Positions 35,994 through 52,284 of a DNA stretch of 64,000 nt are shown in pieces. The position numbers were made by a program, and so were the translations under genes. The DNA comes from an uncultured candidate division Zixibacteria bacterium (GTDB lineage Bacteria > Zixibacteria > MSB-5A5 > UBA10806). The DNA lies in assembly GCA_963801605.1 (NCBI GenBank), contig CAWDFP010000006.1, forward strand, positions 736,001 to 800,000, in the 5' to 3' direction. Below the pieces are notes generated by a model that searched no databases, was not told where the DNA came from, and saw only the letters and a list, made by a program, of their open reading frames with translations. Each line of letters begins with the position of its first letter. Position 1 is the stretch's first letter.

Positions 35994-36784
35994 TGAACCT
36001 CCTTGCCGCCGATTTTAATATCAAATTCTGAATCAACTTTAGACGTTATCTATTAACAAAAAGTTAATTGGTAAACAGAATTAGTTATTCCTTAGGGTTC
36101 TTTAGCTTTTTGGTTTTAGTTTCATCGAGCCACGGGTTTTTGATCTTTGCCCGGCTAACAAAATCGGTTAAAAATAATTTTAATATTGGTCACAATATAG
36201 CATCTTAATGTTTCCGGTCAAGTTTTTTTAGGGGAGTCTTAGACGTAAAGCGTACCTAATGCCAAATATTAAAAAAACGATTCCGTTGATACATAATAAG
36301 TTAGCTTTTTATTTTGCGTAATAGGCCGTACGTAATAATAGCTATATCTTGTCGCATTGACTTTTTTCCCGGAAGAGGCTATCTACTTTCGCGTACGACG
36401 TAAGTTTTGTAATGCGGACGCAAGAGATTTGTATAAAATGCGCCTGACGAATGACTATTGAGTCGTTTGCAAATTAGTGATGCCAAAAATCAGAGGCGCC
36501 GATCAACCCCAGTATCCCAACCGCAAATAATTGATCGGCGCCTTTTGAGCATTTTTTGCCAAATAACTGTTTTTTCCAATTCCTGCCACACCTTTAAGAT
36601 CTTATTTACACAATCGCCAACCTACTTTCAAAATTTTTAATTATTAGTGGAATAAGGCAATTAAATATTGTAAAAATGGGAATTAATAAGAAATTGATCG
36701 TTATTGCGGCTAATCTTAAAAACCTGTAAAATTATTCAGATACTTGGTTTTTGCACCCACTTATTATGATTTTTCACAACAAGT

Positions 36785-36814
36785 TTGACTAAAATCTGTG
36801 TTGTATGTTAATAT
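36785..36814 (+). promoter_or_regulatory. Putative promoter of the first cytochrome operon
   Basis: TTGACT-18 nt-TAATAT with upstream TG; a TTCACAA half-site ends 5 nt before the -35. Confidence 0.45.
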
Positions 36815-36926: not shown

Positions 36927-37388
36927 GTGAAGGTATTCACATCAGCTAAATTTCCTTTACTTCTTGCTCTTCTTACTGCGCTTCTGACCTTATCATGCGA
37001 AACCGAGGTTAAGGAGTTAACTATCAGGGTAACAAGTCGTATGTACTCTAATTTCGAAGAAGAGCATAAGGTCAAGATGTACGAAAAATTTCAGATATCC
37101 GATACTGATCTTGAGGCCGTGGCGGTTGAATTCTATCCTGATTTCGATCTCGATACCCTGACGTTTAAGGCTTATTCCAAATCGGATACGTTAAATAATC
37201 CTGCCGTCAAGATTCTGATCATCAAAGGAAATGAGAAAAAAGAGGAAGCCTGGGCGTTTTTGCCGGGGCTGGTTCCGCATTTCTCACCTCGTTCTTTTAT
37301 TGGTTTTGAACTGATGGATTACAAAACTGGCAAGAAATATATAAAGCCGCTAAAACCCAGTCCTGAAAAAGGGAAGGAAAATGAATAA
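36927..37388 (+). CDS. Lipoprotein, weakly reminiscent of the ResB periplasmic region
   Basis: GGAGG RBS plus GTG at 36927; LTLSC lipobox; F.PDF...S....NNPAV.I...W.F pattern. Confidence 0.65.
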   Translation: MKVFTSAKFPLLLALLTALLTLSCETEVKELTIRVTSRMYSNFEEEHKVKMYEKFQISDTDLEAVAVEFYPDFDLDTLTFKAYSKSDTLNNPAVKILIIKGNEKKEEAWAFLPGLVPHFSPRSFIGFELMDYKTGKKYIKPLKPSPEKGKENE

Positions 37389-40300
37389 AAGGCTACTAAT
37401 CTGCATTGCGCTTCTATTTTGTTTTGGATCATCCTCCCTTTACGCGAAGCAAAAGGAATGTTACGATTGCCATCAAAAGGCAAAAAAAACCTTCGATTCG
37501 TATAAATATTCGCACGAACCTGTCAAAAGCAAAGATTGTGCGGCCTGTCATGATTCGCATGGATTTTCGCAAAAGCTTGTTCTGAAGGCATACGATAACA
37601 GCATTTGCACCAAATGCCACAAGGAATTTGCGGCGGGCTATCCTCCCAGCACGGCAACTTATGTTCATCAGCCTATGAAAGATCGCGTTTGTTGGTCTTG
37701 TCATGAGCCTCACGGCAGTAATCTTCCATCGCTGGTGCGGGTGGTAAATGACACTTTGGTTTGCTTTATATGCCATGACGACGTAGGCAATCTTCAAAAA
37801 AAGACAGTGGTACATGAGCCATTCGCAAAAAATCAATGTTCGGCCTGCCACAGTGCACATGACAGTCAAGTCGCAGGGCTTCTAAATAAAAATCAAAAGG
37901 AGCTATGCGCCGGATGTCACAGCTTAACCGATAAAGATTATTTGGCTAAACACTCAGTTACGGGTATCGATAAAATCGATTGTGTTACTTGTCACAATCC
38001 TCATGCCTCCGACAAACCAGGCCTGATCGATCCACTGGCACATGCTCCGATGGTAGAGGGTAGTTGCGAAAGTTGCCATAGTAATTTGGCCGCGGGAGAT
38101 ACCACAATTTCGACCACGCCCGGCGAACTATGTGTTACCTGCCATGATGATATTGGCAAGAAAATGGCCATGGCAACGCCTCATCCGCCGGCGGCGGGCG
38201 GAGAATGTCTAACCTGTCATTCGGCTCATAAGGGTAAAGAAAAATCGTTATTAGTATCCAAGCCCGGCGAACTATGCCTGGGATGTCATACCGAGTTCGC
38301 CGACACGTTAAAACTCGAAGGTGTCCATACTGCATTAAGAAATGGCGACTGCAATCTTTGTCATGATTCTCACGGTTCTCCCAATAAAAGCCTGGTTAAG
38401 GATACATCGGATAAACTCTGTCTCGATTGCCATACCGCCCTCAGGGATTCGATGTCTGTTGCAAAGACTCCTCATCCTGCCGTGGAGACCAAGGGATGTC
38501 TCGGTTGCCATCAACCGCATTATTCCAAAAAGATGCCCCTTTTGGTTGATGACGAGAAGCTGATTTGCTTACAATGCCATGACAATCTTAAAGAAGAGAG
38601 CAAGGCCGGAACGGTTCATATTCCGTTTATGTCGGGGCAATGCGGAGCCTGCCATAATCCGCATGGTTCATCCCAGCCTAATATGTTTCGGTCAAGCGTA
38701 CCGGCCGTTTGCGGGCGGTGCCACAATGACGTTATCCAGACTCTCTCTTTGCCGTCAACACACCCGCCTGCCAAAGAGGGTGAATGCCTTTCATGCCACA
38801 AACCGCACTCATCAGATTTTGCCAGGCTTTTAAAGGCAAATGAAAGTCAAAGCTGTGCCGAGTGCCATGGCGATCTGGATGGTAAGCTCGCCGTAAAGAA
38901 TCTTCATACGCCTGTTAAGAATGGCCAATGTACAGCTTGCCATAATCCTCATGGCGCCAAAGAGGCAAAGCTTCTGCCTGCAAGCGGGAAAGATCTTTGT
39001 TTATCATGTCATAAGGATAAAGCGGAAGAGCTGAAAAAAGCAGTGGTGCACCAGCCGGTCAAAGACGGGGAGTGTACCACCTGTCATTTAGCGCATGGAT
39101 CAAATGAGCGTAATAATCTTATTAAACCTGTCGCCGAGCTCTGTCAGGGTTGCCATGATCCCAGTATCGATAAAATTAAAACAGCCCACGGCGGATATGT
39201 TGTCCGAGGTTCCAACTGCGTTACCTGCCATAATCCTCATGCCTCCGATCAACCGAAACTCGTTAATAAAGTTCAACATGCACCGTTTGCGGAAAAAAGC
39301 TGCGATTCGTGCCATAAAGGTTTAGGCGAGGGCGGCAAGGTACAGTTAGTGGCTGAAGGCGACGCTTTATGCGCTCAATGCCACGATGAAGTCGGCAAAA
39401 TTATGGGGCAGCCGAATATTCACACGCCGATTAAAATGGGCCAGGGATGTATAAGCTGTCATGATCCGCATGCCTCGCGAAACGAGAAGATGCTTATTGA
39501 TAAGGTCCCGACGCTCTGCTACAATTGCCACAGCGATTTACAAACGAAATTCGAATCCGATAAAGCCCACTCGCCTGTTAAAGATGGCAACTGTTTAGCC
39601 TGCCATGAAAAACACAGTGGTCCAAACAAGGGACTTCTGATTACCAAGAGCACACAACTCTGTTATAGCTGCCACACAAAAGAAAAAGAAAAGTTTACTA
39701 AAGAGGTAGCTCACAAGCCGGTGGCCGAGGGAAATTGTTTCCAGTGTCACGATGCTCATTCTACCGATAACAATTTTATGTTAGTAAAGCCTGAAAGCAA
39801 GCTCTGCGTAACCTGTCATTCACTGACCACGCCGGCGTTTCAGCAAGCTCATCATAATTTCCCGATGGAGACCGCCGAATGCGCCAAGTGCCATGATCCT
39901 CATTCAACTCCGAAAGGATCGGTCGCGCTGCTTTATCCTGATCAGCATAGTCCTTTTAAGATTCGAAACTGTAATGCCTGCCATGTATCTAACAAGAGTT
40001 TCGCCACGATAAAGAGCGGTAAAGAGCTTTGCCTACAATGTCACACCAAGTCGGATGCCCTCTTTGCCAAGAAAAATGTGCACAAGGCGGTTTCGATGCC
40101 GGGCGAATGTGTCAACTGCCATTCGCCGCATACAGGATTTTCCGCAAATATCCTGTCAAAGCCGGCGGGGGATGTCTGTTTTAATTGTCACAAAAAGGCG
40201 GAATTCGAGGGTAAATTCAAACACAAACCGGCTACCGAGAACTGCTCCATTTGTCATGAAGTGCATTCATCGGATAACGCCAGCCTTTTAAATGGTGATG

Positions 40301-40497
40301 ATGAGATAAAGCTCTGTCTTAAGTGCCATAACGCCGATAAAACGCACATGCATCCCATGGGCAAGGATTATAAGGATCCGCGTAACGGGGAAAGGTTAGT
40401 CTGTACAAGTTGCCATTCGCCGCATTCGAGTAATTTTGAAAATATCCTGATGGCCGATAAACAGAGGGAGCTTTGTGTGGCCTGCCATGCTCTGTAA
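37381..40497 (+). CDS. Giant 42-heme cytochrome c built from doubled-CXXCH repeats
   Basis: Signal peptide; 42 CXXCH counted by hand in 1038 aa; repeating H.P....CxxCH.PH......L.....LCxxCH unit. Confidence 0.95.
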   Translation: MNKRLLICIALLFCFGSSSLYAKQKECYDCHQKAKKTFDSYKYSHEPVKSKDCAACHDSHGFSQKLVLKAYDNSICTKCHKEFAAGYPPSTATYVHQPMKDRVCWSCHEPHGSNLPSLVRVVNDTLVCFICHDDVGNLQKKTVVHEPFAKNQCSACHSAHDSQVAGLLNKNQKELCAGCHSLTDKDYLAKHSVTGIDKIDCVTCHNPHASDKPGLIDPLAHAPMVEGSCESCHSNLAAGDTTISTTPGELCVTCHDDIGKKMAMATPHPPAAGGECLTCHSAHKGKEKSLLVSKPGELCLGCHTEFADTLKLEGVHTALRNGDCNLCHDSHGSPNKSLVKDTSDKLCLDCHTALRDSMSVAKTPHPAVETKGCLGCHQPHYSKKMPLLVDDEKLICLQCHDNLKEESKAGTVHIPFMSGQCGACHNPHGSSQPNMFRSSVPAVCGRCHNDVIQTLSLPSTHPPAKEGECLSCHKPHSSDFARLLKANESQSCAECHGDLDGKLAVKNLHTPVKNGQCTACHNPHGAKEAKLLPASGKDLCLSCHKDKAEELKKAVVHQPVKDGECTTCHLAHGSNERNNLIKPVAELCQGCHDPSIDKIKTAHGGYVVRGSNCVTCHNPHASDQPKLVNKVQHAPFAEKSCDSCHKGLGEGGKVQLVAEGDALCAQCHDEVGKIMGQPNIHTPIKMGQGCISCHDPHASRNEKMLIDKVPTLCYNCHSDLQTKFESDKAHSPVKDGNCLACHEKHSGPNKGLLITKSTQLCYSCHTKEKEKFTKEVAHKPVAEGNCFQCHDAHSTDNNFMLVKPESKLCVTCHSLTTPAFQQAHHNFPMETAECAKCHDPHSTPKGSVALLYPDQHSPFKIRNCNACHVSNKSFATIKSGKELCLQCHTKSDALFAKKNVHKAVSMPGECVNCHSPHTGFSANILSKPAGDVCFNCHKKAEFEGKFKHKPATENCSICHEVHSSDNASLLNGDDEIKLCLKCHNADKTHMHPMGKDYKDPRNGERLVCTSCHSPHSSNFENILMADKQRELCVACHAL

Positions 40498-40503
40498 ACG
40501 CTA

Positions 40504-41031
40504 ATGCCCAATAGACGCCATCAAATCTTCGTAAGAGGAGGAGACCACCGCGGGCTGCTGGTGGGATCGATTATCCTGATTCTTGTCCTGGTAGTAGTGG
40601 CATCAGGCTTGTTTTATATTTTAGCGAACAGAAATTTGGAACAGGCCACTTACCGGGCACATTTCGAGACTTTGCGGAACACAATGCAACTGCTTCTTCC
40701 CTGGCTTCTGATAGTAAATATAATCGCGCTGATTATAGTGATAATTCTGGCTCTGTTTTTCACTCACAAGATCGCCGGACCGGCATACCATCTAATTGTT
40801 GATCTCAAAAAGGTTAAGGATGGGGATCTAACGGTGAGAACTGCATTTCGTAAAGGTGACCGCCTCAAGGAGGTAGCATCTGCAATGTCTGAAACGACCG
40901 AGAATCTGCGTTTAATCGTTGCGGATATTAAAAATGATGTTGCCAATATTTCGGAAGTTTGCGGAGACGAGAAAACCGTTAAGGAGAAACTCGAAAATCT
41001 CAATAGGACTTTGGGCAAATTAAAAACCTGA
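40504..41031 (+). CDS. 2-TM protein with HAMP domain and short coiled coil
   Basis: Two TM helices; THKIAGP...GDL....FRKGD.L.E.A. Confidence 0.8.
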   Translation: MPNRRHQIFVRGGDHRGLLVGSIILILVLVVVASGLFYILANRNLEQATYRAHFETLRNTMQLLLPWLLIVNIIALIIVIILALFFTHKIAGPAYHLIVDLKKVKDGDLTVRTAFRKGDRLKEVASAMSETTENLRLIVADIKNDVANISEVCGDEKTVKEKLENLNRTLGKLKT

Positions 41032-41586
41032 TGTGGCTGGTATTATTAGCCGTTTTGATGGCGGTAAATGAAAATTCAATTTCGCCGAATATTATGGCGG
41101 AGAATATTATCGGCCATACGGGGACGGTATTTCGGGAAAACGCCGGTTTGAAATCGGATAGCTGTACCATCTGTCACAATGACGGGGGATTTGATTTGAG
41201 CGCGACCACCAACCAACTCTGTTACCACTGCCATGACGATGTCGAATCCAAATCACTAAAGAGGTTCAAGCATACGGACGTTGTTAACCCCCAATATCCC
41301 GAGCGTAAGTTGCGAGGGATGCCATAAGCTTCACAAAGCAGGCGCGAGACCGTTACTGACTCAAAACGAAATGGAGCTTTGCCAGGGCTGCCATCCGGAA
41401 ACAAAGCAATACCTATCTCATCCGGTTGTAACCGGCTTACAGGGACAGACGATTACCGGGAGCGATGGGCGAGTTATTACCTGTGCATCACATTGTCATG
41501 ATGTTCACGGCACGGACAATAAATATTTCTGCAAATTGGAGCCGGGGCGAGAATTGTGTATTTCATGCCATAAGGATTTTGAGTAA
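41031..41586 (+). CDS. Small multiheme cytochrome c (5 CXXCH + 1 CX3CH), frameshift near 41300
   Basis: CTICH, CYHCH | CEGCH, CQGCH, CASHCH, CISCH. Confidence 0.8.
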
Positions 41587-41593
41587 GATCGAT

Positions 41594-42481
41594 ATGATTA
41601 AAGAGCGTACGAAAATTTCGCATTTTCTTATTTCGATATCTTTATTGATGTTGTTTTCCGTTTCGGCTGATGCTCAATTCAGCGAACAGCATAAAGGTTA
41701 CGCATTTGAAAACCCGGGCTTTTTAAGCATCCCCGGAGCACTATCATACGATAGCGGACGACATCGTCTGGCCATTGCCGACAAAGGCCGTCAGTTAGTT
41801 TATCTATTCGACCTCACCGATCACTCCTATCAAACCCTTGGAGCGGATAAAGAATTAGGAGAGCCTGCCGGATTGGCTTTTAGCCGTCAGGGTACATTAT
41901 TTATCGTCGAGGACAAAAGCCCTTATATCCTAAAGTTTCCATATTCAATCGATCAACCGGAAACGCTAAAATTCGGAGATAGTGGCAGCCCGATTCATCC
42001 TGGAAAGTTATTTATCAAAAACGATGGCGGTATATTAATTGCCGATAAAGACGATGCTGCCATTTATTCAATTGATTCCACCGGAGTACTTACCGGGAAG
42101 ATCACCGAAAAGTTAAGGCAGCCAGATGGAATTATGATCGATCTTTCTGGAGAAATCCTTGTGGCCGATAAAGGTGTTGACCCTATTTTGGTATATAGCT
42201 CAAAAGGTGAATTCGAGCGTAAACTCTCGCGGCCGGAATCTCCCACATCGCAGTTTAGCTTTGCCGCATCGGGGTTGGCAATTGATCAAAGCGGTTGGAT
42301 ATATACTCTGGATATGACAAGAGAGCAAATCGTTACTTTTGACCCTACCGGAGTTAATCGTTTGGAATGGGCGCCTGAAGCGCCATTTTTCCCGGAGGAT
42401 ATCGCAATTGACCGCTATAATACGATCTATGTTTCAGAGAGCGGCTCAGGCAGCGTTCGTATTTTTTCGAGGAGCAACTGA
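41594..42481 (+). CDS. Secreted NHL-repeat beta-propeller protein
   Basis: Signal peptide; P.G.A....G...VAD repeats. Confidence 0.85.
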   Translation: MIKERTKISHFLISISLLMLFSVSADAQFSEQHKGYAFENPGFLSIPGALSYDSGRHRLAIADKGRQLVYLFDLTDHSYQTLGADKELGEPAGLAFSRQGTLFIVEDKSPYILKFPYSIDQPETLKFGDSGSPIHPGKLFIKNDGGILIADKDDAAIYSIDSTGVLTGKITEKLRQPDGIMIDLSGEILVADKGVDPILVYSSKGEFERKLSRPESPTSQFSFAASGLAIDQSGWIYTLDMTREQIVTFDPTGVNRLEWAPEAPFFPEDIAIDRYNTIYVSESGSGSVRIFSRSN

Positions 42482-42483
42482 TA

Positions 42484-43356
42484 GTGCATCCGATATTGGC
42501 GGCGATAATACTCAGTGCAAACATTGGATCGTCCAGGATTGAATTTGCAGCCGTTACTCCGGGGACGATCGATGGGCTTCCTATGAATAATGCCCAATGC
42601 CTGGCAGTCAACCCGCGCACTGAGGAATTTTTGGTGGCTGACGCCCTAAACGATCGCATCCTGGTTTTTGATACCACCGGTCTGCCCGTATTTGATTTTC
42701 AGCTTGGAGCGAATCGTCATAATCCCTTTGGGATTGTAGTCGATTCATCCGATCAGATAATTGTGGGGGCGATGGATTCTCCGGTGCTTTGGATATACGA
42801 TTATAGCGGCGAGTTCGTAGATAATATCGAACTTCCCGATAGCGTATATCCGGGTAGGCTTTTAGCCTTACCAGGGGGCAATCTATTGGTTATAAACCGT
42901 TCAGGTCGGGGTGCGCTGCAAATTGATCACAGCGGGAATATCGTTTCGAAATATGAGGTATCCCGGGAAGAGTGTAAACCTTCAGGCATATGTCTCGATG
43001 CAAAAGGAAATATCATTATAGTTTCCTCGGCCGGGCCGGTTATCACTGCATTTGATCATTATGGGAAAGCGATATTTTCCTTTGGGGAACATGGCCGGGA
43101 GCCAAAAGATTTTTCCCGGCCGACAGCCGCCGCGATTGATGACCACGGCAACTATTGGATAGTTGACTCATTTAGGCATGAGTTAAAGCTTTTTGATTCC
43201 GATCATAATTTCAAGGAGGTTTTTGGACAACGCGGCACTAATAAAGGAGAGTTTTATTTCCCGGCGGATATAAAGATAACTTCAAGCGGTAAAATGGGGA
43301 TATTGGATAAGGGGTCAGGAAGGCTTCAGATATTTAGATTGAATTATGACAAATAA
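42484..43356 (+). CDS. NHL-repeat beta-propeller protein
   Basis: PFGIVVDS, FGEHG....FSRP..AAID, FGQRG...GEF..P.DI repeats. Confidence 0.88.
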   Translation: MHPILAAIILSANIGSSRIEFAAVTPGTIDGLPMNNAQCLAVNPRTEEFLVADALNDRILVFDTTGLPVFDFQLGANRHNPFGIVVDSSDQIIVGAMDSPVLWIYDYSGEFVDNIELPDSVYPGRLLALPGGNLLVINRSGRGALQIDHSGNIVSKYEVSREECKPSGICLDAKGNIIIVSSAGPVITAFDHYGKAIFSFGEHGREPKDFSRPTAAAIDDHGNYWIVDSFRHELKLFDSDHNFKEVFGQRGTNKGEFYFPADIKITSSGKMGILDKGSGRLQIFRLNYDK

Positions 43357-44329
43357 GCTAATAAAAATCGGACTTACAGTTCTATTGCTTCAGTTGCCGG
43401 CTATTGGAGGAGAATACCATCAGCAATCGGATGTTATTTGCAGCGATTGCCATACAACTCACTATAGCGAGCATGGCACGCTGCCTGAAAAGGCCGAACC
43501 GGGCGGGCCCTTCACCGAGCTTCTCCTGGTTGGGTCAATTAATAAGCTGTGTCTATCTTGTCACGATGGCACCGACCCGGCGGCTCCCGATGTGCTTTTC
43601 CCCGTGGCGATGTATAACGGATCAGGCTCCGAATACTCGGGGGCAGGCTTTTTTTCCAATGCGGACGGCGTGATTTCCGTTAATGGCCACTCTCTCGGTG
43701 TTCCGCTTGAGATTCCCGATTCTAATCCGGCGCGGACGGTGATGCTTTCCTGCATCAGTTGTCATGACGCGCATGGCACATCCAATTACCGAAATCTGGT
43801 TTTAAATCCGGATAGTTTGGGTATCGACATAAATCTTTCAATAGGCGCCGATGTTTTTGAAAATGTTCATCCTCAGAATCCGCCCGAAAGAAATGCGTCT
43901 ATCCAGGCGTATAAATCGGGCAACAGCGGATATGTCGATAAAATTACTTTATGGTGTACAGACTGTCATAACGCTCTGTCTGTGGATAATCCCGGAAATC
44001 CGCCGGCTCATTTTATGCGTCATCCGTCCGGAGTGAGTATGGATGGCGTTTCCTATCATCTGAGTCCGGCGCATTGGGTAAGCGGAGAAGGGGACGGGTT
44101 TGGATTAGCCACCGGGGATGGCCTCGAAGGAATCCCCAGGGTACGTTTCCAGTCTGAAGGGGCGACTGATTATAACACTGCGATTACGCCATCAAGAACG
44201 AATCAGGTGTTTTGTTATTCATGTCATTTTGCTCATGGCGGCCCGTATGAGGCTTCATTAGTATGGCCATATAAAACCAGCGGTGCAGCGGATATGTACT
44301 CGGGGTGTCAGCAATGTCATTACAAATAA
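43346..44329 (+). CDS. Hexaheme cytochrome c with OmcS-like motif layout (paralogue A)
   Basis: YH-x6-CSDCHTTH, LCLSCH, GH, CISCHDAHG..YRNL, WCTDCH, RHP, VFCYSCHFAHG, terminal CQQCH. Confidence 0.85.
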   Translation: MTNKLIKIGLTVLLLQLPAIGGEYHQQSDVICSDCHTTHYSEHGTLPEKAEPGGPFTELLLVGSINKLCLSCHDGTDPAAPDVLFPVAMYNGSGSEYSGAGFFSNADGVISVNGHSLGVPLEIPDSNPARTVMLSCISCHDAHGTSNYRNLVLNPDSLGIDINLSIGADVFENVHPQNPPERNASIQAYKSGNSGYVDKITLWCTDCHNALSVDNPGNPPAHFMRHPSGVSMDGVSYHLSPAHWVSGEGDGFGLATGDGLEGIPRVRFQSEGATDYNTAITPSRTNQVFCYSCHFAHGGPYEASLVWPYKTSGAADMYSGCQQCHYK

Positions 44330-45883
44330 AAAAACGATCCGAAATATATTTGGCGACGGCGCTCACCTTAGCGGTCATTGTGATACTGGCCGGTTTAGTG
44401 TATGCCGATTCCGGCGCATATAAGACCACCAAACACGCAGACCCACAAATCGGAGTGAACCGCGATTCCAATCTTCCTCGGGGCAATTGTAGTCAATGCC
44501 ATTTGGAACATAACACCGATAATCCCAACGATTATGCTTTATTCGCCCCGCCGGATAACTCACTATGTCTTTCGTCCGGTTGCCATGAGTACGAATATCA
44601 ATGGCCTCCGGGAAACTATTACTGGAGCTATCCCGGCAATGTGCCCGACTGGTATAACTCGGCCCACGGATCATCGACAGCGCTATTCACACCGGGCGGT
44701 AACCGCGAAGTGCGGCTTTGCGTGCAATGTCATAATCCGCACGGCAAAACCGATTCAACGTATGGCGTTTACCCCTCGGAGACAAGTTTCCTCGAAGAAG
44801 GCGGCTGCTATTCTAACGGCGGATTAATAGGGCAGGGATGCCATGGGAATAATTCAAGTAACAGGCCGATCGGGGCTGCAGATATTTATTCGGAAATTCT
44901 TAAATCATCGCGGCATAATGTCGAAGCGACCACCAAGGAGCATTCCTCTGATTGGATAGCGGTGTATCCTTACGGCAGAGAATCGCGAACGCCTGTCTCA
45001 GGTTTTTTCGCTGGTGATAGGCGGCATGTCGAGTGTGTTGATTGTCACAATCCGCACAAGGCGATTACGGGAACGCATCAGCCGGCGACAGGAGAAATCG
45101 GCGGTCCGCTTTTGGGCAATTGGGGAGTGGAACCCGGTAGCAGCGCACCCTGGACCGTCCCAATGAGCTTTAATGCTGTTGATTTTTCCTCGATATCTAC
45201 GGCCAGAGAGTATCAGCTCTGCCTGAAATGTCATAGTTATTTTGCCTATGGATATAGTCCTCCCACGGGATACACCGATATCGCCCGCGAAATAAATCCG
45301 GCTAATGCTTCATTTCATCCAATTGAGGATACAATTCGAACCAACTCCTACACATCGCCGTCCCCAAATAACAATTTTACCGAAACGATGGAAACACCCT
45401 GGGATGATGGCCGTCACAACCAGATGACATGTTCCGATTGCCATGGTTCGGAAAACGGTGCTGATCCCAAAGGCCCGCATGGTTCAAACCAGCCCTATAT
45501 CCTCATGGCTTCGCCGGCCGCAGGCGAAACCGCTTTATGTATCAAGTGCCATAAAGCATCGGTTTATGCGCCGCCGTTTGATCCGGGCGCACAGGAGACA
45601 GGCAGTAGATTCGATTTGCAAACGACGGGAAACGATAAGGCAAATCACTACTATCATGTAACAATCATGAGACTTGGCTGCCGGCAATGTCACGCGGCAC
45701 GGCAGACGGTCCCCCCCGGCAATCCCTGAACAGCGGACCCCTTATCCGATTCAGGTGGGTTCGGCTCACGGAACTAATTTGTTTGCCGGTCTACTAAATG
45801 GTACGAATATTAATTCGTATTCTCCGGGAAGCTGCGCTCCCACTTGCCATGATCCGGTCACTTATAATGCAGGGCCGGAATAA
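44314..45883 (+). CDS. Multiheme cytochrome c (7 CXXCH + 3 extended motifs), frameshift near 45725
   Basis: CSQCH, CVQCH, CVDCH, CLKCH, CSDCH, CIKCH, CRQCH plus CLSSGCH, CYSNGGLIGQGCH and CAPTCH (tail in ORF 45674-45883). Confidence 0.85.
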
Positions 45884-47502
45884 TGCCGAGAAGATTTGTG
45901 TTTGTCATTATTATGCTGGCATCATTAAAAGCTTCTGCCTCCGATTTGAGAGGAAATCTTAATCTCAGCTATCAAGGCACTGATGGAGGGGCGGAAAATC
46001 CCGCGTCTTCAGTGTTCAGCCAGGTTGCCAATCTTTATATTACCGACCGTATCTTTTACGGCAATGATTTAACTCTGGGAGCATTTATTTTTCACACCAA
46101 AACCTCAGGAGCGGCCAGAGGCGATTTGCGCGTTAGATATTCTGCGAATCTTTTAGGCAATAGATATTCACTTTATTCGTCGTATTCACCATACACCCTG
46201 TACCGCCCCGGAGGGGGTGCACTCAAGGTACGAGTATTTCAAGGATCTCTTACTTACCGTCCAAAATTGCTCCCGGATATTATGGGCAGTTACGCCTCTA
46301 CTCGTCAGTATACAACCGACAAACCGCGATCCCAGGACGGGCTAAATTATTCCTGGAATTTGGGGACTCAGTTTTCCAAATCGTTTGGATCGTTCAGCGG
46401 CGTCTATCAAAGGCAGCAAACAAAAAACGATCAGGCTCTCGTTCAAACCAAACAGATAACACGAACTATTAATTTGGGATATGATATTTCAAAACAGTAT
46501 CCGGCCAATGTTAATTGGTCGGCGGGATATAATTATATAGGTACCACTACAGAGAACCCGGGTATTCAAAAGGATAATAGCCGAACGCATATCGGCTCTT
46601 TTCAGGTTGGACGGAATTTTGGCAAATGGTTTTCAATGTCAGGGGCGACGTCTGGCCGAATTTTCGATCTTGAGCATTTGTCCAGAACAACCAGGATCGA
46701 AGATTTTCTTGCCAATGGCTCGGCCAGCATGAAGCTTCGCGAGAACATCACATTTGTACTTCTTCGAGGCTATAATATCAGTCAGAACAAAGAAGATTCT
46801 ACCACGAAAATTATAAACGATTATATAAATCTGGGGGGTGTCTGGGGATTTTCGGTTGGACGAGGCGCCGATACGCGGCTGGCGTTGTCGAGATCGTATT
46901 ATTATGCTTCAATCCAGGGGCGCAATATCGTTGATAATGGCACCCTGATTTTTGATATGAATCTTTATCGCCGCACCACCGCGACGGTCAATCTGGGAGT
47001 TGCTCGTAATCAGAAGATTCTTTCCGGCTTTGGGAGATATCAAATGACGCGTAATGTCGATATTATTTCGAGGCCGCTGAGGTCAATATCGCTAAACATG
47101 AATTACCAGTCATCCGAAACCTCAAACTCGATCAATTTCAAGAACAGCAACAGCGACAATTTTTCTGTGAATCTAACACATATTTTGAAATATTATTTTA
47201 ATTATGCGTTAACTTATACGCGGTCTGCCTTTCATTCGCAAGGGATGAATAATTTCTCGACATTATCGGTGGCATTTAATTACCGATTGAGCAATACGCT
47301 TTCGTTACTCGGAACGTATAGCAGGCGAGATCTGGGCGAATTATCCACAGCACTTGAAAGCGGTATCGATCAAACTGTGGGAGGCAGAATTTCCTGGATT
47401 ACCTCACCAAGAAGTAATTTGACTTTGAATTATTCCGTTTCCAATATTAATACCACACGTCAAACACAAGGTTTTGGCGGTTATTTTGTGACGAGCTTTT
47501 GA
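45883..47502 (+). CDS. Large outer-membrane beta-barrel protein
   Basis: Signal peptide; alternating aromatic/polar strands rich in Y/N/S/T throughout; C-terminal Phe (GGYFVTSF). Confidence 0.8.
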   Translation: MPRRFVFVIIMLASLKASASDLRGNLNLSYQGTDGGAENPASSVFSQVANLYITDRIFYGNDLTLGAFIFHTKTSGAARGDLRVRYSANLLGNRYSLYSSYSPYTLYRPGGGALKVRVFQGSLTYRPKLLPDIMGSYASTRQYTTDKPRSQDGLNYSWNLGTQFSKSFGSFSGVYQRQQTKNDQALVQTKQITRTINLGYDISKQYPANVNWSAGYNYIGTTTENPGIQKDNSRTHIGSFQVGRNFGKWFSMSGATSGRIFDLEHLSRTTRIEDFLANGSASMKLRENITFVLLRGYNISQNKEDSTTKIINDYINLGGVWGFSVGRGADTRLALSRSYYYASIQGRNIVDNGTLIFDMNLYRRTTATVNLGVARNQKILSGFGRYQMTRNVDIISRPLRSISLNMNYQSSETSNSINFKNSNSDNFSVNLTHILKYYFNYALTYTRSAFHSQGMNNFSTLSVAFNYRLSNTLSLLGTYSRRDLGELSTALESGIDQTVGGRISWITSPRSNLTLNYSVSNINTTRQTQGFGGYFVTSF

Positions 47503-47516
47503 TCTCTGGAGGATAG

Positions 47517-48101
47517 ATGAAAAATAAATGCCTTATTTTGGGAATTACATTGTTATTGGCAGTCCTCGGATGCGGCGGTCCCCGGACCTTTCTCAACGGC
47601 AACACAGATTGGACATTTTATAAACAGCTTGGCGTCTTGCCATTTGTTAATCTAACAACCGATCGTTTTGCGGGCGAAAAGGTGCAGTCGGCCTTTATTA
47701 CCGAACTTTTTCTTTCGGAACGCTTTCAGGTTATGGAACCAGGAGAGTTTAACTCCAGAGTAGCCCAGGAACTTAAAACCTCGGCATCGCAGCCCGTCCA
47801 GGAACTTTCCCTTGACCAGATCAAAACGATCGGTGAAAAAACCGGAGTTCAGGGGGTAATCGAGGGTGTTGTCAGAGAATATGGTACTACCCGAGTGGGG
47901 CAAACCGATTACCCGGTCATTAGCTTAAGTATCAGAATGATCGATGTTCCTACCGGAACAGTAATCTGGATGACATCTTTCAGCAAAAAAGGCGGCCCTA
48001 ATTTGCCGATCGTATCGATTGGAGAGACGCATACGCTAAGCGAACTGACGCAGAAGATCTGCCATGACATTGTTTCTGATTTTGTAAGCCGTGCCTTTTA
48101 A
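47517..48101 (+). CDS. Lipoprotein, CsgG/PelC/GNA1162-like
   Basis: VLGC lipobox; GVLPFVN...AG..V...F..EL...F.VME.GE; G.V.EYG; IRMIDV.TG.VIW. Confidence 0.75.
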   Translation: MKNKCLILGITLLLAVLGCGGPRTFLNGNTDWTFYKQLGVLPFVNLTTDRFAGEKVQSAFITELFLSERFQVMEPGEFNSRVAQELKTSASQPVQELSLDQIKTIGEKTGVQGVIEGVVREYGTTRVGQTDYPVISLSIRMIDVPTGTVIWMTSFSKKGGPNLPIVSIGETHTLSELTQKICHDIVSDFVSRAF

Positions 48102-48112
48102 GGAGAATTCGG

Positions 48113-48688
48113 ATGAAGCTTTACTCGAAAACAAACTGGATAATAATTTTATCGTTGGCGTTTTTGTCATGCGGTCCAAAGCCAAGCGTTTACCTGCAGG
48201 ATAACAATGGCGCCAAAGCGTCCAAGACGCTCGCCATTTTGCCATTCGATAATTACTCCGGAAAAGAGGATGCCGGCAAGCAAGTGGCCAATGCCTTTTT
48301 GGTGGAACTTCTCAAGAATCCATCGTTTCATGTCGTAGAGCCGGGAGAAGTCGATAGGGTGATGAGGGAGGAACGGATTCGCTCATCGAGCCAGATTGAT
48401 CTGAATGCGGCTCGGCTATTTAAAGATAAGCTTTCGTCGGATTATATTTTAATTGGCGCGGTCAATGAGTTTGATTATCTCAAAGACGGCGATCGTGATG
48501 TTCCCCTGGTGGGATTTACGGTAAGGTTGCTCGATACCTCAAATGGACAGATTGTTTGGGCGGCCAACTACAGCAGGCGGGGGGACGATCACGAGCTTGT
48601 TTTCGGCTGGGGTTTGGTAAGCTCGCTTTCGGAACTAACTCAAATCAGCGTTCGCGATGCAATTTCCCGTATAAAGATTGCACAGTAA
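48113..48688 (+). CDS. Lipoprotein, CsgG/PelC/GNA1162-like (second paralogue)
   Basis: FLSC lipobox; AILPFDN.SG...AG..VA..F..EL; VRLLD...GQIVW. Confidence 0.75.
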   Translation: MKLYSKTNWIIILSLAFLSCGPKPSVYLQDNNGAKASKTLAILPFDNYSGKEDAGKQVANAFLVELLKNPSFHVVEPGEVDRVMREERIRSSSQIDLNAARLFKDKLSSDYILIGAVNEFDYLKDGDRDVPLVGFTVRLLDTSNGQIVWAANYSRRGDDHELVFGWGLVSSLSELTQISVRDAISRIKIAQ

Positions 48689-48764
48689 ACGTAACTCATT
48701 ACCTCTCTTTTGGTTAGCTTGCCGTCTTAACGGTAAGAATAACGATAATTATTTGAAATAATAC

Positions 48765-48855
48765 TTGACATAGTAATTGTTACTAATATATTTATGACGA
48801 ATATCATAAATCCCGAGAGGATTTTTGTTAAACGCTCTTGTGAAGAACTTCACTA
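48765..48855 (+). promoter_or_regulatory. Internal promoter with palindromic operators for the second cytochrome transcription unit
   Basis: TTGACA-16 nt-TATATT; palindromes TAGTAA-N3-TTACTA (48771-48785), TTTATGA-N6-TCATAAA (48791-48810), TTGTGAAGAACTTCACTA (48838-48855). Confidence 0.6.
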
Positions 48856-48874
48856 ACCTCGATGTAGAAAAAAA

Positions 48875-49823
48875 ATGAGAAGATACTTTATCCCGCTGAT
48901 TTTCCTACTTGTCAACCTGGCTGTCTCGGCCGAACCGTTGGTCGAGCCCAATGTCAGTCTTGTCAGTGTGGTTAAAGGTTATTCGGATCGTAAAGCATTT
49001 GGAAATCCCACAGGAATATTCCTCGATCCCATAAAAAACGAAATCTATGTCGCCGACGCCGGTAATCATCAGATTGGGATATTCGACAAGCGCGGCACCA
49101 GCTTGTGGACATTCAAGCACTGGGTAACGGATAGCCGGGAGGAAGGCGCCAGGATATCTGGGCGATCCTCATTCAATAGTGGTTACCAAAGACGGCGACA
49201 TCATCGTCAGCGACAACAAAGCTGATTATATCGATGTTTTTGATTATCGCGGCTCACTTCAATTAAAAATATCTCCTGAAGATTATCCTGAGGCAGGCCC
49301 ATTCAGAGGCGCCATTCTGGCGCTTGATAAATCAGGCAATCTTTATATCGGCACGATTCTTGAAAAATCGGAAATCCTGGTGCTCGATTCCGATTATCAG
49401 CTTATCAAGCGATTCGGGAAAAAAGGTGAGGAGCCGCAGGATTTCCAGAATATCTCGGGAATCTGGGTGAACGGTGATGGCAACATTCTGGTCACCGATG
49501 CCCTGGGCACTCCAATTTTGAAGAAATTCAATTCCAACGGCGAATATCTCGGTGGTTTTGGAGAGCATAGTATCGAGAAAAACGATTTTTCGTTTCCAAG
49601 CGGAGTGGTGATGACCTCAAGCGGGCGGATCTGGATCGTCGATCAACTTCGACAGGTAGTCAAATGCGTGAACGATTCGGGAGCTTTCATCACTATGATC
49701 GGCGGCCTGGGATATGCTCCCGGCGATATGTGCTATCCCTCCGGAGCCGCTTCCGACGGAGATTCGACGCTGGTAGTAGTCGAGAAAAACGGTAATAGAT
49801 TTCAACAATTTATCATCAGGTAA
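48875..49823 (+). CDS. Secreted NHL-repeat beta-propeller protein, frameshift near 49140
   Basis: Signal peptide; NPTGIF.D...IYVADAGNH; FGKKG...F..ISGI; FSFPSGV; YPSG.A.D. Confidence 0.85.
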
Positions 49824-49937
49824 TAAAATGATTAACCCTAAAGTAAATATGCCAGAAGGAGGTGGTACGGTAGTTACAATTTTCACAACTCAGATTGTTA
49901 TTACACGCACTTATTATCAAATTCGAGAGGTTTTGTA

Positions 49938-50987
49938 ATGAAGAAAATTTTCGCACTAACTCTGGCAATGGTATTCGTTTTCGCGATGACGGCATTCGCC
50001 GGTGAATACCACATGGGAAGCTCATTGAGCTGCTACCAGTGCCATTCAATGCACTATAGCCAACAGCATATGTTTGGCTATGCTCACGAGGATAGTATTC
50101 CGTTCCTCGGCCCCGATGGACCATACAACAAGCTGCTTCGTTCGGATGTCAACGATCTTTGCCTTTCCTGCCATGACGGGGGAGATGTCATAGATGTTTA
50201 CGGCGTATCCGAAGTCAACGCGACAGTTAACCGCGAGGGCGGTTTCCTTAGCAGAGTCGGCGACGGCAATGAGAATCACGGCCATACGCTCGGAGCCACC
50301 AGCACTGCTCCCGGTAGCCTTCCAGCTTGGAGCCCGGATCAGACAGAGGGTCTTACCTGCGTCAATTGCCATAGCGCACACGGCAGCGCCGGTTCAGGGA
50401 ATCCGGATCAGGTTAAGGGTCAGTGGAGAAACCTGACCAGGAATCCTGGCAACGGAACCAACAGATACGTCAACTACGAAAAATCCAGCGAGCCCGTAAA
50501 CACGACCCGCGACATCAAGTGGAGATCCTCCAGCGCCCACGACGCCGGCGCTTATGAAACCGACAATGTCGATTTTTATGAGCCCGTGTCATCTGAATCC
50601 CGTTACGGCGCCTGGTGCCAGGGATGCCATACCAATTTCCATGGTAATTCCTCAAGCGACAATATGGCTAATGCGGACGGATGGATCCGTCACCCGACAG
50701 CCGACGTTAATCTAGGGACCTCTGGCGCAACCGATTTTGCATCCCATGCTTATCGTCCGCAAGTGATGAGCCCGACAGGCAACTGGGGCACCCAGGGCGA
50801 TTCCACCTGGACTCCGCCGACCGATCTTACCCCGACTTGCGTTACTTGCCATAAAGGCCACGGCAACGGTAATGCGTTCGGTCTCGTTTATATGGATGGC
50901 CGCCATCCGCGTACAGAAAACGGCGATGCGGTATCTACCAAGATTACTGCTACCTGCAAAATCTGTCACAGCCAGGGCGGTTATTAA
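49938..50987 (+). CDS. Hexaheme cytochrome c with OmcS-like motif layout (paralogue B, likely major subunit)
   Basis: AFA signal cleavage site; YH-x6-CYQCHSMH, LL..LCLSCH, GGF..GH, APG..LTCVNCHSAHG, WRNL, WCQGCHTNFH, RHP, CVTCHKGHG, terminal CKICH. Confidence 0.88.
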   Translation: MKKIFALTLAMVFVFAMTAFAGEYHMGSSLSCYQCHSMHYSQQHMFGYAHEDSIPFLGPDGPYNKLLRSDVNDLCLSCHDGGDVIDVYGVSEVNATVNREGGFLSRVGDGNENHGHTLGATSTAPGSLPAWSPDQTEGLTCVNCHSAHGSAGSGNPDQVKGQWRNLTRNPGNGTNRYVNYEKSSEPVNTTRDIKWRSSSAHDAGAYETDNVDFYEPVSSESRYGAWCQGCHTNFHGNSSSDNMANADGWIRHPTADVNLGTSGATDFASHAYRPQVMSPTGNWGTQGDSTWTPPTDLTPTCVTCHKGHGNGNAFGLVYMDGRHPRTENGDAVSTKITATCKICHSQGGY

Positions 50988-50998
50988 TAGTCCGCTTG

Positions 50999-51034
50999 AA
51001 GGAGGGTGTCTCGCACACCCTCCTTTTTCTTTTC
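50999..51034 (+). terminator. Strong hairpin with U-tract after paralogue B
   Basis: AAGGAGGGTGT-CTCGC-ACACCCTCCTT followed by TTTCTTTT. Confidence 0.8.
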
Positions 51035-51057
51035 ATACTTTTACTGCGGGATAAATA

Positions 51058-52176
51058 ATGATCAAACACACAATTGTATTTCTTTTTGCGATGATTTCTC
51101 TTTCTACCGCCGGAACTATTTTACAGAATGACGGTTTCCCGCACAAACCCGGTTCCGGTTATCAACCCGGCGCAATACTCGATACGCCGCCCTTTACGCC
51201 AGGTTATCACAATGGCAACGACATGGTTTGCTCAGATTGCCATATTATGCATGCCTCTATGCAGCATGATTATGGTACCCCTGATTCTTATACCTATCCT
51301 TATAACGTTGAGCCTCCCGCAAATCATCTTCTTAAGGCTGCGAACGCCTTAACGCTGTGTCTGTCCTGTCACAACGATAAGGTTGGTATTCCCGATGTTG
51401 TCGGCGCCGACGTCAATGGAGGGAGTGATCGTGCGGCGGGACAGCTTGGCGAAGTTGGCGAAATCAACAACAACGGGCATAATATTGCTCCTGATCCGGG
51501 GGACCTCTGCAATCGATGCCATTTTGGAGGGGAGTTTCACACCGCTTCTGTAGAGTGTATCGATTGTCATGCTCCACATGGTACCCGGTATTATCGCAAT
51601 TTACAGTGGGCGTCATGGCCGGGTCATCAGCCACCTATTGTCGCTTTTGTCAGGCCTGGTTCGCAGGGACTTGACAAATATCAAACTGCCAATGTTCGAT
51701 ACGGCGCTCCCGGTTATGGACGTGGTCAGGCGACCTGGAGAGAGGTAACTAATATCTGCATTGATTGTCATCATACCCTGGTTGACGCCTCGCCCAACGG
51801 TGGACGTTATACCAATCCGGAGCTTGATGATCATTGGAATAGACACCCCGGTACAAATAGCGAAGACGGCGCATATCGGCCTATTGGCGGTTTACCGGAT
51901 GATCCCGATGTTTACACCGATCCTCAGAATTGGGTAAGCGGTGAAGGTTCCGAATTTTCTGTTGGACGAGTGCCTTATATCGTAACCGAGGCTCACTCAT
52001 TTCAACAGGCGGACGTTGTTTCCACCAGTAACGAGGTTTTCTGTCTTTCCTGTCATAGCGCTCACGGCACCGATAAGCCGTTTGGTTTACGATGGAATCC
52101 GACCAATAACTCAACTCCACTGGCTACTGCTGGATGCCGTCAATGCCATAACAATACAGCGAGCAATATTCCATAG
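51058..52176 (+). CDS. Heptaheme OmcS-like cytochrome c (paralogue C)
   Basis: YH-x6-CSDCHIMH, LCLSCH, extra CNRCH, CIDCHAPHG..YRNL, CIDCH, RHP, VFCLSCHSAHG, CRQCH. Confidence 0.85.
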   Translation: MIKHTIVFLFAMISLSTAGTILQNDGFPHKPGSGYQPGAILDTPPFTPGYHNGNDMVCSDCHIMHASMQHDYGTPDSYTYPYNVEPPANHLLKAANALTLCLSCHNDKVGIPDVVGADVNGGSDRAAGQLGEVGEINNNGHNIAPDPGDLCNRCHFGGEFHTASVECIDCHAPHGTRYYRNLQWASWPGHQPPIVAFVRPGSQGLDKYQTANVRYGAPGYGRGQATWREVTNICIDCHHTLVDASPNGGRYTNPELDDHWNRHPGTNSEDGAYRPIGGLPDDPDVYTDPQNWVSGEGSEFSVGRVPYIVTEAHSFQQADVVSTSNEVFCLSCHSAHGTDKPFGLRWNPTNNSTPLATAGCRQCHNNTASNIP

Positions 52177-52247: not shown

Positions 52248-52284
52248 TAATAAGGTATCCATCCGGGTACCTTATTATGTTTTT
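52248..52284 (+). terminator. Probable terminator ending the cytochrome cluster
   Basis: TAATAAGGTATCC-ATCC-GGGTACCTTATTA then TGTTTTT. Confidence 0.55.

Follow-up and report, generated by a model that had tools for sequence, protein, structure and literature searches.

Does a Zixibacteria bacterium carry the parts of an OmcS-type cytochrome nanowire, and are those parts of a kind already described? The question is raised by a cluster of cytochrome genes at positions 36927-52176 of a 64,000-nucleotide stretch of DNA (hereafter the window) from an uncultured candidate division Zixibacteria bacterium (assembly GCA_963801605.1, contig CAWDFP010000006.1, positions 736,001 to 800,000), which an earlier note, made from the letters of the stretch alone, had read as a self-contained module for extracellular electron transfer. 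We find that the cluster is, judged by homology and synteny, a compact variant of the published omcS-companion (osc) kind, and we consider it probable that it works as a compact osc-type extracellular electron-transfer system of its host.

Results

Gene content of the cluster

The cluster comprises 14 genes, all on the + strand, which are seen as 16 open reading frames (ORFs), two of the genes being frameshifted in the assembly. Six genes encode cytochromes, namely a protein with 42 CXXCH motifs, a small cytochrome, hexA, a 474-aa cytochrome, hexB and hept372; the remainder encode three NHL proteins, a Cys-free 539-aa protein, two LpoB/CsgG/PelC-like lipoproteins, a further lipoprotein and a protein with a transmembrane part and a HAMP-like segment (Table 1). 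The co-oriented genes, six cytochromes and 73 CXXCH motifs reported in the earlier note are all confirmed, and the three NHL propellers, the barrel, the three lipoproteins and the HAMP membrane protein that it listed are all present. Its gene count was right, but the two frameshifts (in the small cytochrome and NHL3) had been overlooked, and against its count of four extended haem motifs, three (CX4CH, CX10CH and CX3CH) are backed by conservation in relatives. The 73 CXXCH motifs (42+2+3+6+7+6+7) lie in 5,482 aa of cluster open frames, compared with 0 in the remaining 20,777 aa of window frames of at least 100 aa; a chance origin of this density is excluded because the open frames of the rest of the window carry no such motif. 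Pfam and NCBIfam return generic names only for the cluster (doubled CXXCH, cytochrome c3/c7 and NHL, with LpoB and CsgG for lipoE and lipoF).

OmcS-family cytochromes

Profile comparison places hexA, hexB and hept372 in the OmcS family. With respect to hexA, the database holds 222 relatives at E ≤ 0.001; the closest named ones among the matches listed come from Zixibacteria (72% and 61% identity), and others are labelled Planctomycetes, Deltaproteobacteria, Poribacteria, Abyssubacteria and Anaeromyxobacteraceae. A profile of 43 sequences (40 of the 120 listed hexA matches, picked for spread, plus the three window paralogues) matches OmcS (PDB 6EF8) at E=1.4e-17 with 66.8 bits, whereas the same profile reaches OmcE at only 7.6e-4. 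The alignment with 6EF8 begins at residue 1 of mature OmcS and covers the N terminus and haem motifs 1 to 5, pairing five of the six further conserved His, and haem motifs 3, 4 and 5 together with the His that follows each of them. In addition, the aromatic-His...CxxCHxxH motif of the family aligns with the same motif at the N terminus of mature OmcS. The whole genome encodes three members of the family, all of them within the window.

Twelve His are conserved across the 43 sequences, six belonging to CXXCH motifs and six lying elsewhere; H25, H36, H39, H115, H140, H143, H208, H226, H294, H297 and H325 (hexA numbering) are invariant, and H73 is found in at least 90% of the sequences. In OmcS, as described in the available text of PMC6584659, 11 of the 12 His ligands belong to the subunit itself and the remaining one, on haem 505, is supplied by the next subunit. 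As far as the aligned residues can indicate, the 12 conserved His of the family fit this pattern. H39 of hexA, which stands in the CxxCHxxH motif three residues after haem motif 1 and is invariant in 43/43 sequences, aligns with position 16 of OmcS, and His16 of the mature protein is what we take to be the residue donated to haem 5 of the neighbouring subunit.

Correspondence with the osc block

In Geobacter sulfurreducens the osc cluster spans GSU2504-GSU2493, and the system has been published as widespread (Shen et al. 2025, Cell Chem Biol 32:239). Citing papers place omcS, omcT and oscC (GSU2501) at the start of the osc operon and link a block of eight genes (GSU2500-GSU2493) with the maturation and secretion of OmcS; in their account OscI is the 26-haem GSU2495 of about 70 kDa, and OscJ (GSU2494) is one of the cytochromes. 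Our bridge search covered 401 genomes sampled from the phylum of a Desulfosudis locus that is syntenic with the window (L051), 14 of them with OmcS-like genes. One Desulfobacterota genome, G628, encodes an OmcS ortholog that matches 6EF8 over residues 1-407 (E=2.5e-147), followed by two small cytochromes, a second hexahaem protein and then eight genes, which encode a 552-aa propeller, a 770-aa barrel-type protein, lipoproteins of 200 and 438 aa, a 615-aa prolyl isomerase, a 658-aa 26-haem protein, a 16-haem protein and a 299-aa NHL protein. Gene for gene, this block fits the published osc description. The two small cytochromes (L116, 2380-3990 on G628:C9), of 307 and 219 aa with four CXXCH each, have no counterpart in the window.

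The hexahaem paralogues of the window are 23-29% identical to the two G628 hexahaem proteins (E 2e-5 to 3e-10), with hept372 as the best window match to the OmcS ortholog (E 3e-10). Following the OmcS-family genes, as at the OscE position by gene order, stands the 539-aa barrel, and two lipoproteins come after it, as at the OscF and OscG positions; the position of the OscD-like propeller is occupied by the 474-aa cytochrome. lipoE aligns over its full length with the 200-aa lipoprotein of G628 (31% identity, E 1e-22), lipoF with the C-terminal domain of the 438-aa lipoprotein (residues 283-431; 28% identity, E 2e-15), and NHL3b with the 299-aa NHL protein, which is at the OscK position by gene order (23% identity, E 6e-13).

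The giant and the 474-aa cytochromes

The 42-haem protein has 42 CXXCH motifs spaced ~24 aa apart, with the Paired_CXXCH_1 model in 21 stretches (2.2e-217) and the DmsE/MtrA-type decahaem model TIGR03508 in 10 stretches (2.8e-133). Its residues 2-645 align with the 26-haem protein of G628 (36% identity, E 5e-129) and its residues 663-1036 with the 16-haem protein (35% identity, E 3e-66), and it is likewise colinear with the pairs of 26-haem and 16-haem proteins of L025, L038 and L051. On these alignments it is a fusion, in colinear order, of the 26-haem and 16-haem proteins that stand apart in what we call split clusters.

The 474-aa cytochrome is a predicted nonahaem protein, because nine haem motifs, two of them written CX4CH and CX10CH (C88-H94 and C168-H180), are invariant in 9/9 relatives. 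Its first 118 aligned columns, with three haems, match the hexahaem family (hhalign probability 98.9%, E=1.5e-17), and by this comparison its N-terminal three-haem part is OmcS-family-like; the profile of the whole nonahaem protein gives generic multihaem matches only in the PDB.

Barrel and PelC-like lipoproteins

Relatives of the 539-aa protein are few, 23 among 1.84 billion representatives, and the protein belongs to no Pfam or NCBIfam family, those of porins and MtrB included. Its alignment for structure prediction was made from 17/23 relatives (six fragments omitted) and three syntenic ORFs, and AlphaFold2 returns a confident 28-strand barrel with a predicted local distance difference test score (pLDDT) of 88.9. 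In Foldseek the model has 292 matches at E ≤ 0.001, all of them large outer-membrane barrels, and the ESM Atlas adds unnamed look-alike clusters and one porin-named cluster at rank 22. Compared over its full length with the ~700-aa barrels of split clusters (14 of 28 upstream ORFs, among them the Desulfosudis barrel of L051), the protein is matched with an hhalign probability of 99.2% (E=1.3e-19). The L051 barrel in turn matches the G628 barrel at 5e-33, and a direct comparison of the 539-aa barrel with that of G628 gives a probability of 93% over the N-terminal 213 columns only. Missing from the 539-aa barrel is an insert of ~150 aa that is conserved, with invariant D, W, R and K positions, in the ~700-aa barrels of L025, L026, L028, L030, L036, L038, L040, L043, L051, L055, L064 and L067.

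PelC forms a ring under the PelB barrel, and its PDB entries 5T10, 5T11 and 9H80 contain 12 PelC chains. The lipoE profile, built from 26/32 syntenic ORFs and the window protein, matches these three entries at E=2e-8 to 5e-7, and GNA1162 and LpoB come next. Relatives of the L051 lipoprotein number 1,824, and no Geobacter name occurs among the 120 matches listed.

Synteny and phyletic spread

Searching with the hexahaem profile gave 139 relatives, and 78 loci were kept and searched with the 16 window ORFs by tblastn. The giant cytochrome (E ≤ 1e-30), both lipoproteins and an NHL protein occur together in 24/78 loci; among the 48 loci of at least 15 kb, 20 hold this full companion set and 33 hold at least one companion. 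The 24 complete loci are labelled Ignavibacteria/Ignavibacteriales, Nitrospirota, Acidobacteriota/Thermoanaerobaculia, Gemmatimonadota, Fibrobacteria, Krumholzibacteriota, Zixibacteriota, FCB group and Desulfosudis oleivorans, along with several unclassified metagenome-assembled genomes, and syntenic clusters are found in at least eight phyla besides Zixibacteriota. What these comparisons show is that the parts have homologues and that the gene set is conserved.

Ten mapped loci show a recurrent order of NHL protein, hexahaem protein, second cytochrome or propeller, Cys-poor 550-790-aa protein, lipoE and lipoF, after which come either a SurA-like prolyl isomerase with a 26-haem and a 16-haem protein (L025 of Zixibacteriota, L038 and L051) or one 41-42-haem cytochrome. 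An NHL gene lies immediately upstream of the hexahaem gene in L008, L025, L038 and L051, and 28 of the 30 loci that have lipoE show a Cys-poor ORF of 448-793 aa whose end is at most 120 bp upstream of it. Within Zixibacteriota, the hexahaem family is present (E ≤ 1e-10) in 99/285 genomes, 73/198 high-quality genomes and 48/130 genera. Both a same-genus and a same-family genome carry the whole cluster in colinear order, at 43-74% identity; with the window queries, the HAMP-like protein and the small cytochrome were not found in the former, and the hept372 orthologue and lipo196 were not found within the 16 kb compared in the latter.

Four loci of Gram-positive lineages, labelled Actinomycetota (L046, L061, L066 and L073), have hexahaem relatives beside nonahaem-like cytochromes of 813-942 aa with 7 CXXCH and beside NHL proteins, and no giant cytochrome or PelC-like lipoprotein was detected there with the window queries. 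In the class reached from L059, L062, L068 and L077, 30 of 96 genomes of ~2 Mb (G286-G381) have between one and five OmcS-like genes of ~430 aa, frequently arranged in tandem.

The Zixibacteria assignment of the window fits the best named homologues of hexA and locus L001, and an origin of the contig in a Geobacter relative is ruled out by the Zixibacteria homologues. Outside the window, Ccm-type haem attachment is encoded on another contig (C7:164-4645, at the contig end; PF01578 matches of 222 and 751 aa), and elsewhere the genome has one NapC/NirT-like domain and a few other multihaem proteins. The C7 Ccm genes adjoin a further multihaem cytochrome ORF of 353 aa. The literature found on Zixibacteria together with OmcS or multihaem proteins holds only general FeGenie-type statements and describes no such cluster, and the survey or supplements of Shen et al. 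may list Zixibacteria.

Feature coordinates, neighbouring genes and frameshifts

Table 1. Genes of the cytochrome cluster, with positions counted from the first letter of the window
Feature	Position	Strand	Details
lipo196, small lipoprotein	36927-37388	+	ORF open from 36798; likely start 36927; lipobox LTLSC
Predicted 42-haem periplasmic cytochrome, 1038 aa	37381-40497	+	21 doubled-CXXCH units; signal peptide
Small membrane protein with HAMP-like segment, 175 aa	40504-41031	+	weak NCBIfam matches
Small cytochrome, 5 CXXCH + 1 CX3CH	41031-41586	+	two ORFs: 41031-41327, 41281-41586
NHL beta-propeller 1	41594-42481	+	signal peptide; NHL at 1.2e-09
NHL beta-propeller 2	42484-43356	+	NHL at 1.4e-15
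hexA, predicted OmcS-family hexahaem, 327 aa	43346-44329	+	6 CXXCH; signal peptide, then GEYH...CxxCHxxH
Predicted nonahaem cytochrome, 474 aa	44305-45729	+	7 CXXCH + CX4CH + CX10CH
Predicted outer-membrane beta-barrel, 539 aa	45883-47502	+	28 strands; no Cys; signal peptide; C-terminal Phe
lipoE, PelC/DUF799/LpoB-like lipoprotein	47517-48101	+	lipobox LAVLGC; Pfam LpoB and CsgG
lipoF, second PelC/LpoB-like lipoprotein	48113-48688	+	lipobox AFLSC; Pfam LpoB and CsgG
NHL beta-propeller 3	48875-49823	+	two ORFs: 48875-49225, 49179-49823
hexB, second predicted OmcS-family hexahaem, 349 aa	49938-50987	+	6 CXXCH
hept372, third predicted OmcS-family paralogue, 372 aa	51058-52176	+	same 6 CXXCH + a seventh inserted

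Among the smaller genes, lipo196 belongs to no Pfam or NCBIfam family; its tblastn matches lie in L004, L005, L007, L009, L010, L014 and L031 and in the same-genus genome (62% identity), and in L005, L014 and L031 the homologue stands immediately upstream of the 42-haem gene. The NCBIfam matches of the HAMP-like protein are to transmembrane/HAMP parts of chemoreceptors and kinases, and its homologues are found solely in Zixibacteriota loci (L031, 6e-40, and the same-family genome, 53% identity). NHL1 is 50% identical to its same-genus counterpart, and the CX3CH motif of the small cytochrome is also present in L031.

Terminator-like hairpins follow hexB (50998-51026; strong, with a 12-bp stem and a T run) and hept372 (52248-52277), and the best promoter-like site of the region precedes NHL3 (48765-48792; 11/12 matches); all three are consensus matches only. 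The flanks are unrelated to the cluster, with a PAS-LuxR regulator upstream and an EamA transporter and MobB downstream. At 34175-35062 (-) and 35994-36797, the PAS-domain LuxR-type gene is divergent from the cluster across ~800 bp of intergenic DNA; judged from adjacency alone, it may regulate the cluster locally. GC within the window is lowest in the 36-38 kb bin (0.387).

The reading frame of the small cytochrome breaks at five consecutive C (41289-41293), that of NHL3 at about 49140-49180. The small cytochrome is a single 172-aa ORF in L031 and has its halves in one frame in the same-family genome, and the NHL3 halves share a frame in L027 as well as in the same-genus and same-family genomes; since both genes stand in a single frame in relatives, the breaks are specific to this assembly, and consensus error is the likelier cause at the C homopolymer. 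Public data matching the region consist of two soil-metagenome contig sets holding small parts of it (shares 0.07 and 0.06), with no RNA run among these two listed datasets. Their contigs, 99-100% alike, span 41.5-43.6 kb and 46.2-46.8 kb, and neither frameshift site lies inside.

Discussion

Proposed mechanism and its alternatives

In the osc-type reading, electrons would leave an inner-membrane quinol oxidase encoded elsewhere, run along the 42-haem periplasmic cytochrome and cross the outer membrane at the 28-strand barrel, with the two PelC-like lipoproteins on its periplasmic face, to reach hexA, hexB and hept372 outside the cell. By analogy with OmcS, these outer cytochromes would form head-to-tail polymers in which the invariant His that follows haem motif 1 by three residues would ligate haem 5 of the neighbouring subunit; the nonahaem protein may join the base of the filament to the barrel or to the periplasmic wire, and the NHL propellers may be scaffolds or assembly aids. 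We infer localisation, electron direction, polymerisation and the role of each accessory protein by analogy with the characterised systems. In a more specific version, the path would be hard-wired: the fused 42-haem chain would span the periplasm, and the nonahaem would be the base subunit in the barrel, linked to the first filament subunit by the same His-to-haem contact, with its N-terminal part mimicking an OmcS-family subunit; this version is speculative, and we give it little credence.

Several observations weigh against an osc-type filament. Searched singly against the PDB, the four smaller cytochromes give no OmcS match at E up to 1, and the profile alone makes the match. The haem-free AlphaFold2 model of hexA is poor (pLDDT 54), and OmcS is its single, weak Foldseek match (E=0.079, template modelling (TM) score 0.23). 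Aligned with VIA-align, the same model has OmcS at the top of 48,161 chains (Z=4.0, root-mean-square deviation 5.3 Å over 187 residues; next Z=2.0), so that the modelled structural matches to OmcS are consistent but weak. Homology does not predict polymerisation, because in the available Geobacter literature OmcS is the only one among its paralogues known to form a wire. The comparison with osc ran through G628 and not through the G. sulfurreducens Osc sequences, and the Osc letters used here were assigned by G628 gene order. Two parts of osc, both treated as functional in the portions of the Geobacter literature at hand, have no evident counterpart. An OscH-like prolyl isomerase, the absence of which the earlier note did not mention, was not found (a rotamase domain is absent from the 16 cluster ORFs and 12 flanking ORFs, and elsewhere in this 87% complete genome prolyl isomerase matches are weak, the best being 21% identical, at E 3e-12, to the isomerase of the L025 cluster), nor was an OscD-like large propeller, the 552-aa protein of G628 matching only 27 residues of NHL3a (E 5e-4). 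The highest TM score among the listed matches of the barrel model is that of MtrB (0.49, E=1.5e-9), followed by LptD (0.40-0.43), then TonB-dependent receptors and the FimD usher, and this modelled likeness to MtrB would fit a conduit without a filament equally well. Finally, two cluster genes are frameshifted in this assembly.

Such a conduit is the main rival explanation, which we regard as possible though doubtful. The 42-haem protein would thread the barrel in the style of MtrA-MtrB or of the proposed PCC3, and the OmcS-family proteins and the nonahaem would be monomers or short oligomers at the cell surface that act as terminal reductases or oxidases. Besides the MtrB likeness and the ten decahaem-type stretches of the giant cytochrome, this is suggested by the predicted PCC3 of iron oxidisers, in which, by the available text of PMC10734462, a porin and an extracellular cytochrome accompany a periplasmic cytochrome of 21-27 haems, and by the Geobacter OmcS paralogues, which the same Geobacter literature does not know to polymerise. 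However, the barrel has no sequence match to the porin or MtrB families of Pfam and NCBIfam and is homologous to that of the OmcS-linked block, and all 43 aligned sequences keep the His that matches the N-terminal His of OmcS. PelC-like ring lipoproteins, moreover, are export accessories in the Pel system and, to our knowledge, not parts of Mtr-type complexes. The same hardware might instead work inward, taking electrons from Fe(II) minerals, partner cells or cathodes and not serving dissimilatory metal reduction, which we judge unlikely: multihaem conduits are reversible in other systems (Mto/Mtr, in the accessible text of PMC10734462) and similar clusters of multihaem cytochromes, NHL proteins and a barrel (Uet) are described from cathode-oxidising bacteria, but nothing in the sequence sets the direction, and the experimentally studied relatives, OmcS and osc, all serve outward transfer in the accounts available. 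Decay of the cluster in this strain, with real frameshifts and with the small cytochrome and NHL3 as pseudogenes, would account for the interruption of 2/14 genes that are both intact in relatives. It appears very unlikely, since one break falls in a run of five C, a typical long-read consensus error, in a contig of 1.9 Mb, and the remaining 12 genes are open and share 43-74% identity with their counterparts in relatives; the near-identical public contigs reach neither break site.

Significance

The osc-type reading, which we continue to prefer, describes a known kind of system in a little-studied phylum and no new kind of biology. Much of the earlier note agrees with it: the OmcS-like character of the hexahaem proteins is borne out by the profile search, its statement that the companion genes of omcS include beta-propeller and barrel proteins was correct (PMC13194489 and PMC12977616, in the text available), the companion genes are indeed homologous to the block after the OmcS ortholog of G628, the synteny survey finds the giant cytochrome, both lipoproteins and an NHL protein together at 24/78 loci, and a probable Zixibacteria origin, as opposed to a Geobacter relative, is what the named homologues (72% and 61%) indicate. 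The 42-CXXCH protein that it had called a periplasmic conduit is present, but its composition as a fusion of 26-haem and 16-haem proteins had been missed. The filament that it read into the hexahaem proteins is here, too, a proposal, and its view of the module as self-contained is not supported, the cluster having no quinol oxidase and the Ccm genes lying on another contig, and the novelty that was implied falls away with the 2025 publication of the osc system as widespread.

OmcS-type nanowire hardware would be encoded by about a third of the sampled Zixibacteriota genomes (99/285), in addition to the syntenic clusters in at least eight other phyla, and this spread supports the published claim of a widespread osc machinery. 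For the iron cycling that Zixibacteria have long been inferred to carry out, it offers a concrete genetic basis. The compact form also marks parts that seem dispensable (the prolyl isomerase and the OscD-like propeller), while the barrel, two PelC-like lipoproteins, a giant cytochrome, an NHL protein and an OmcS-family subunit are always kept, and this list of kept and dispensable parts would be useful for the design of a minimal heterologous nanowire.

Comparison with known systems

With respect to OmcS itself (6EF8/6NEF), the cluster subunits share six CXXCH in the same order, the 12 conserved His and the aligned N-terminal motif. They differ in that hexA is about 20% identical or less in structure-based alignments and in that the subunits have 327-372 aa compared with 407 mature residues, being about 60-80 residues shorter; filaments are known for OmcS, whereas the cluster subunits are known here from sequence alone. 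MtrCAB and PCC3 resemble the cluster in a large barrel (MtrB giving the best TM score), a long periplasmic multihaem cytochrome with MtrA/DmsE-like units and extracellular cytochromes, but the window barrel has 28 predicted strands and no MtrB-family sequence match, and PelC-like lipoproteins and OmcS-family subunits are foreign to MtrCAB/PCC3. The Uet cluster of 'Ca. Tenderia electrophaga' and Gallionella, which was compared by its description in the text available, likewise has multihaem cytochromes alongside two NHL proteins and a beta-barrel, and includes a prolyl isomerase; its cytochromes, however, are undeca-, tetra- and trihaem, and that description includes no OmcS-family subunit or PelC-like lipoproteins. 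The Pel system (PelC-PelB; 5T10, 5T11 and 9H80) is similar in that lipoE, a PelC homologue by its profile match (E=2e-8), is encoded directly after an outer-membrane barrel, but the cargo here would be a haem protein and not a polysaccharide, and the barrel is unrelated in size.

The closest likeness is to osc, from which the window differs in having no OscH-like isomerase or YncE-like, OscD-like propeller, in the fusion of the 26-haem and 16-haem proteins into a single 42-haem chain, in a barrel of 539 aa compared with 700-770 aa, without the ~150-aa insert, in a lipoF of one domain and not two, and in its extra genes (the OmcS-related nonahaem, the small cytochrome, the HAMP-like protein, a further lipoprotein and two more NHL proteins). 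Common to both are OmcS-family genes beside a large barrel, two PelC/LpoB-like lipoproteins, 26 + 16 periplasmic haems and NHL propellers, as well as the presence of several OmcS paralogues in one locus, as with omcS, omcT and oscC.

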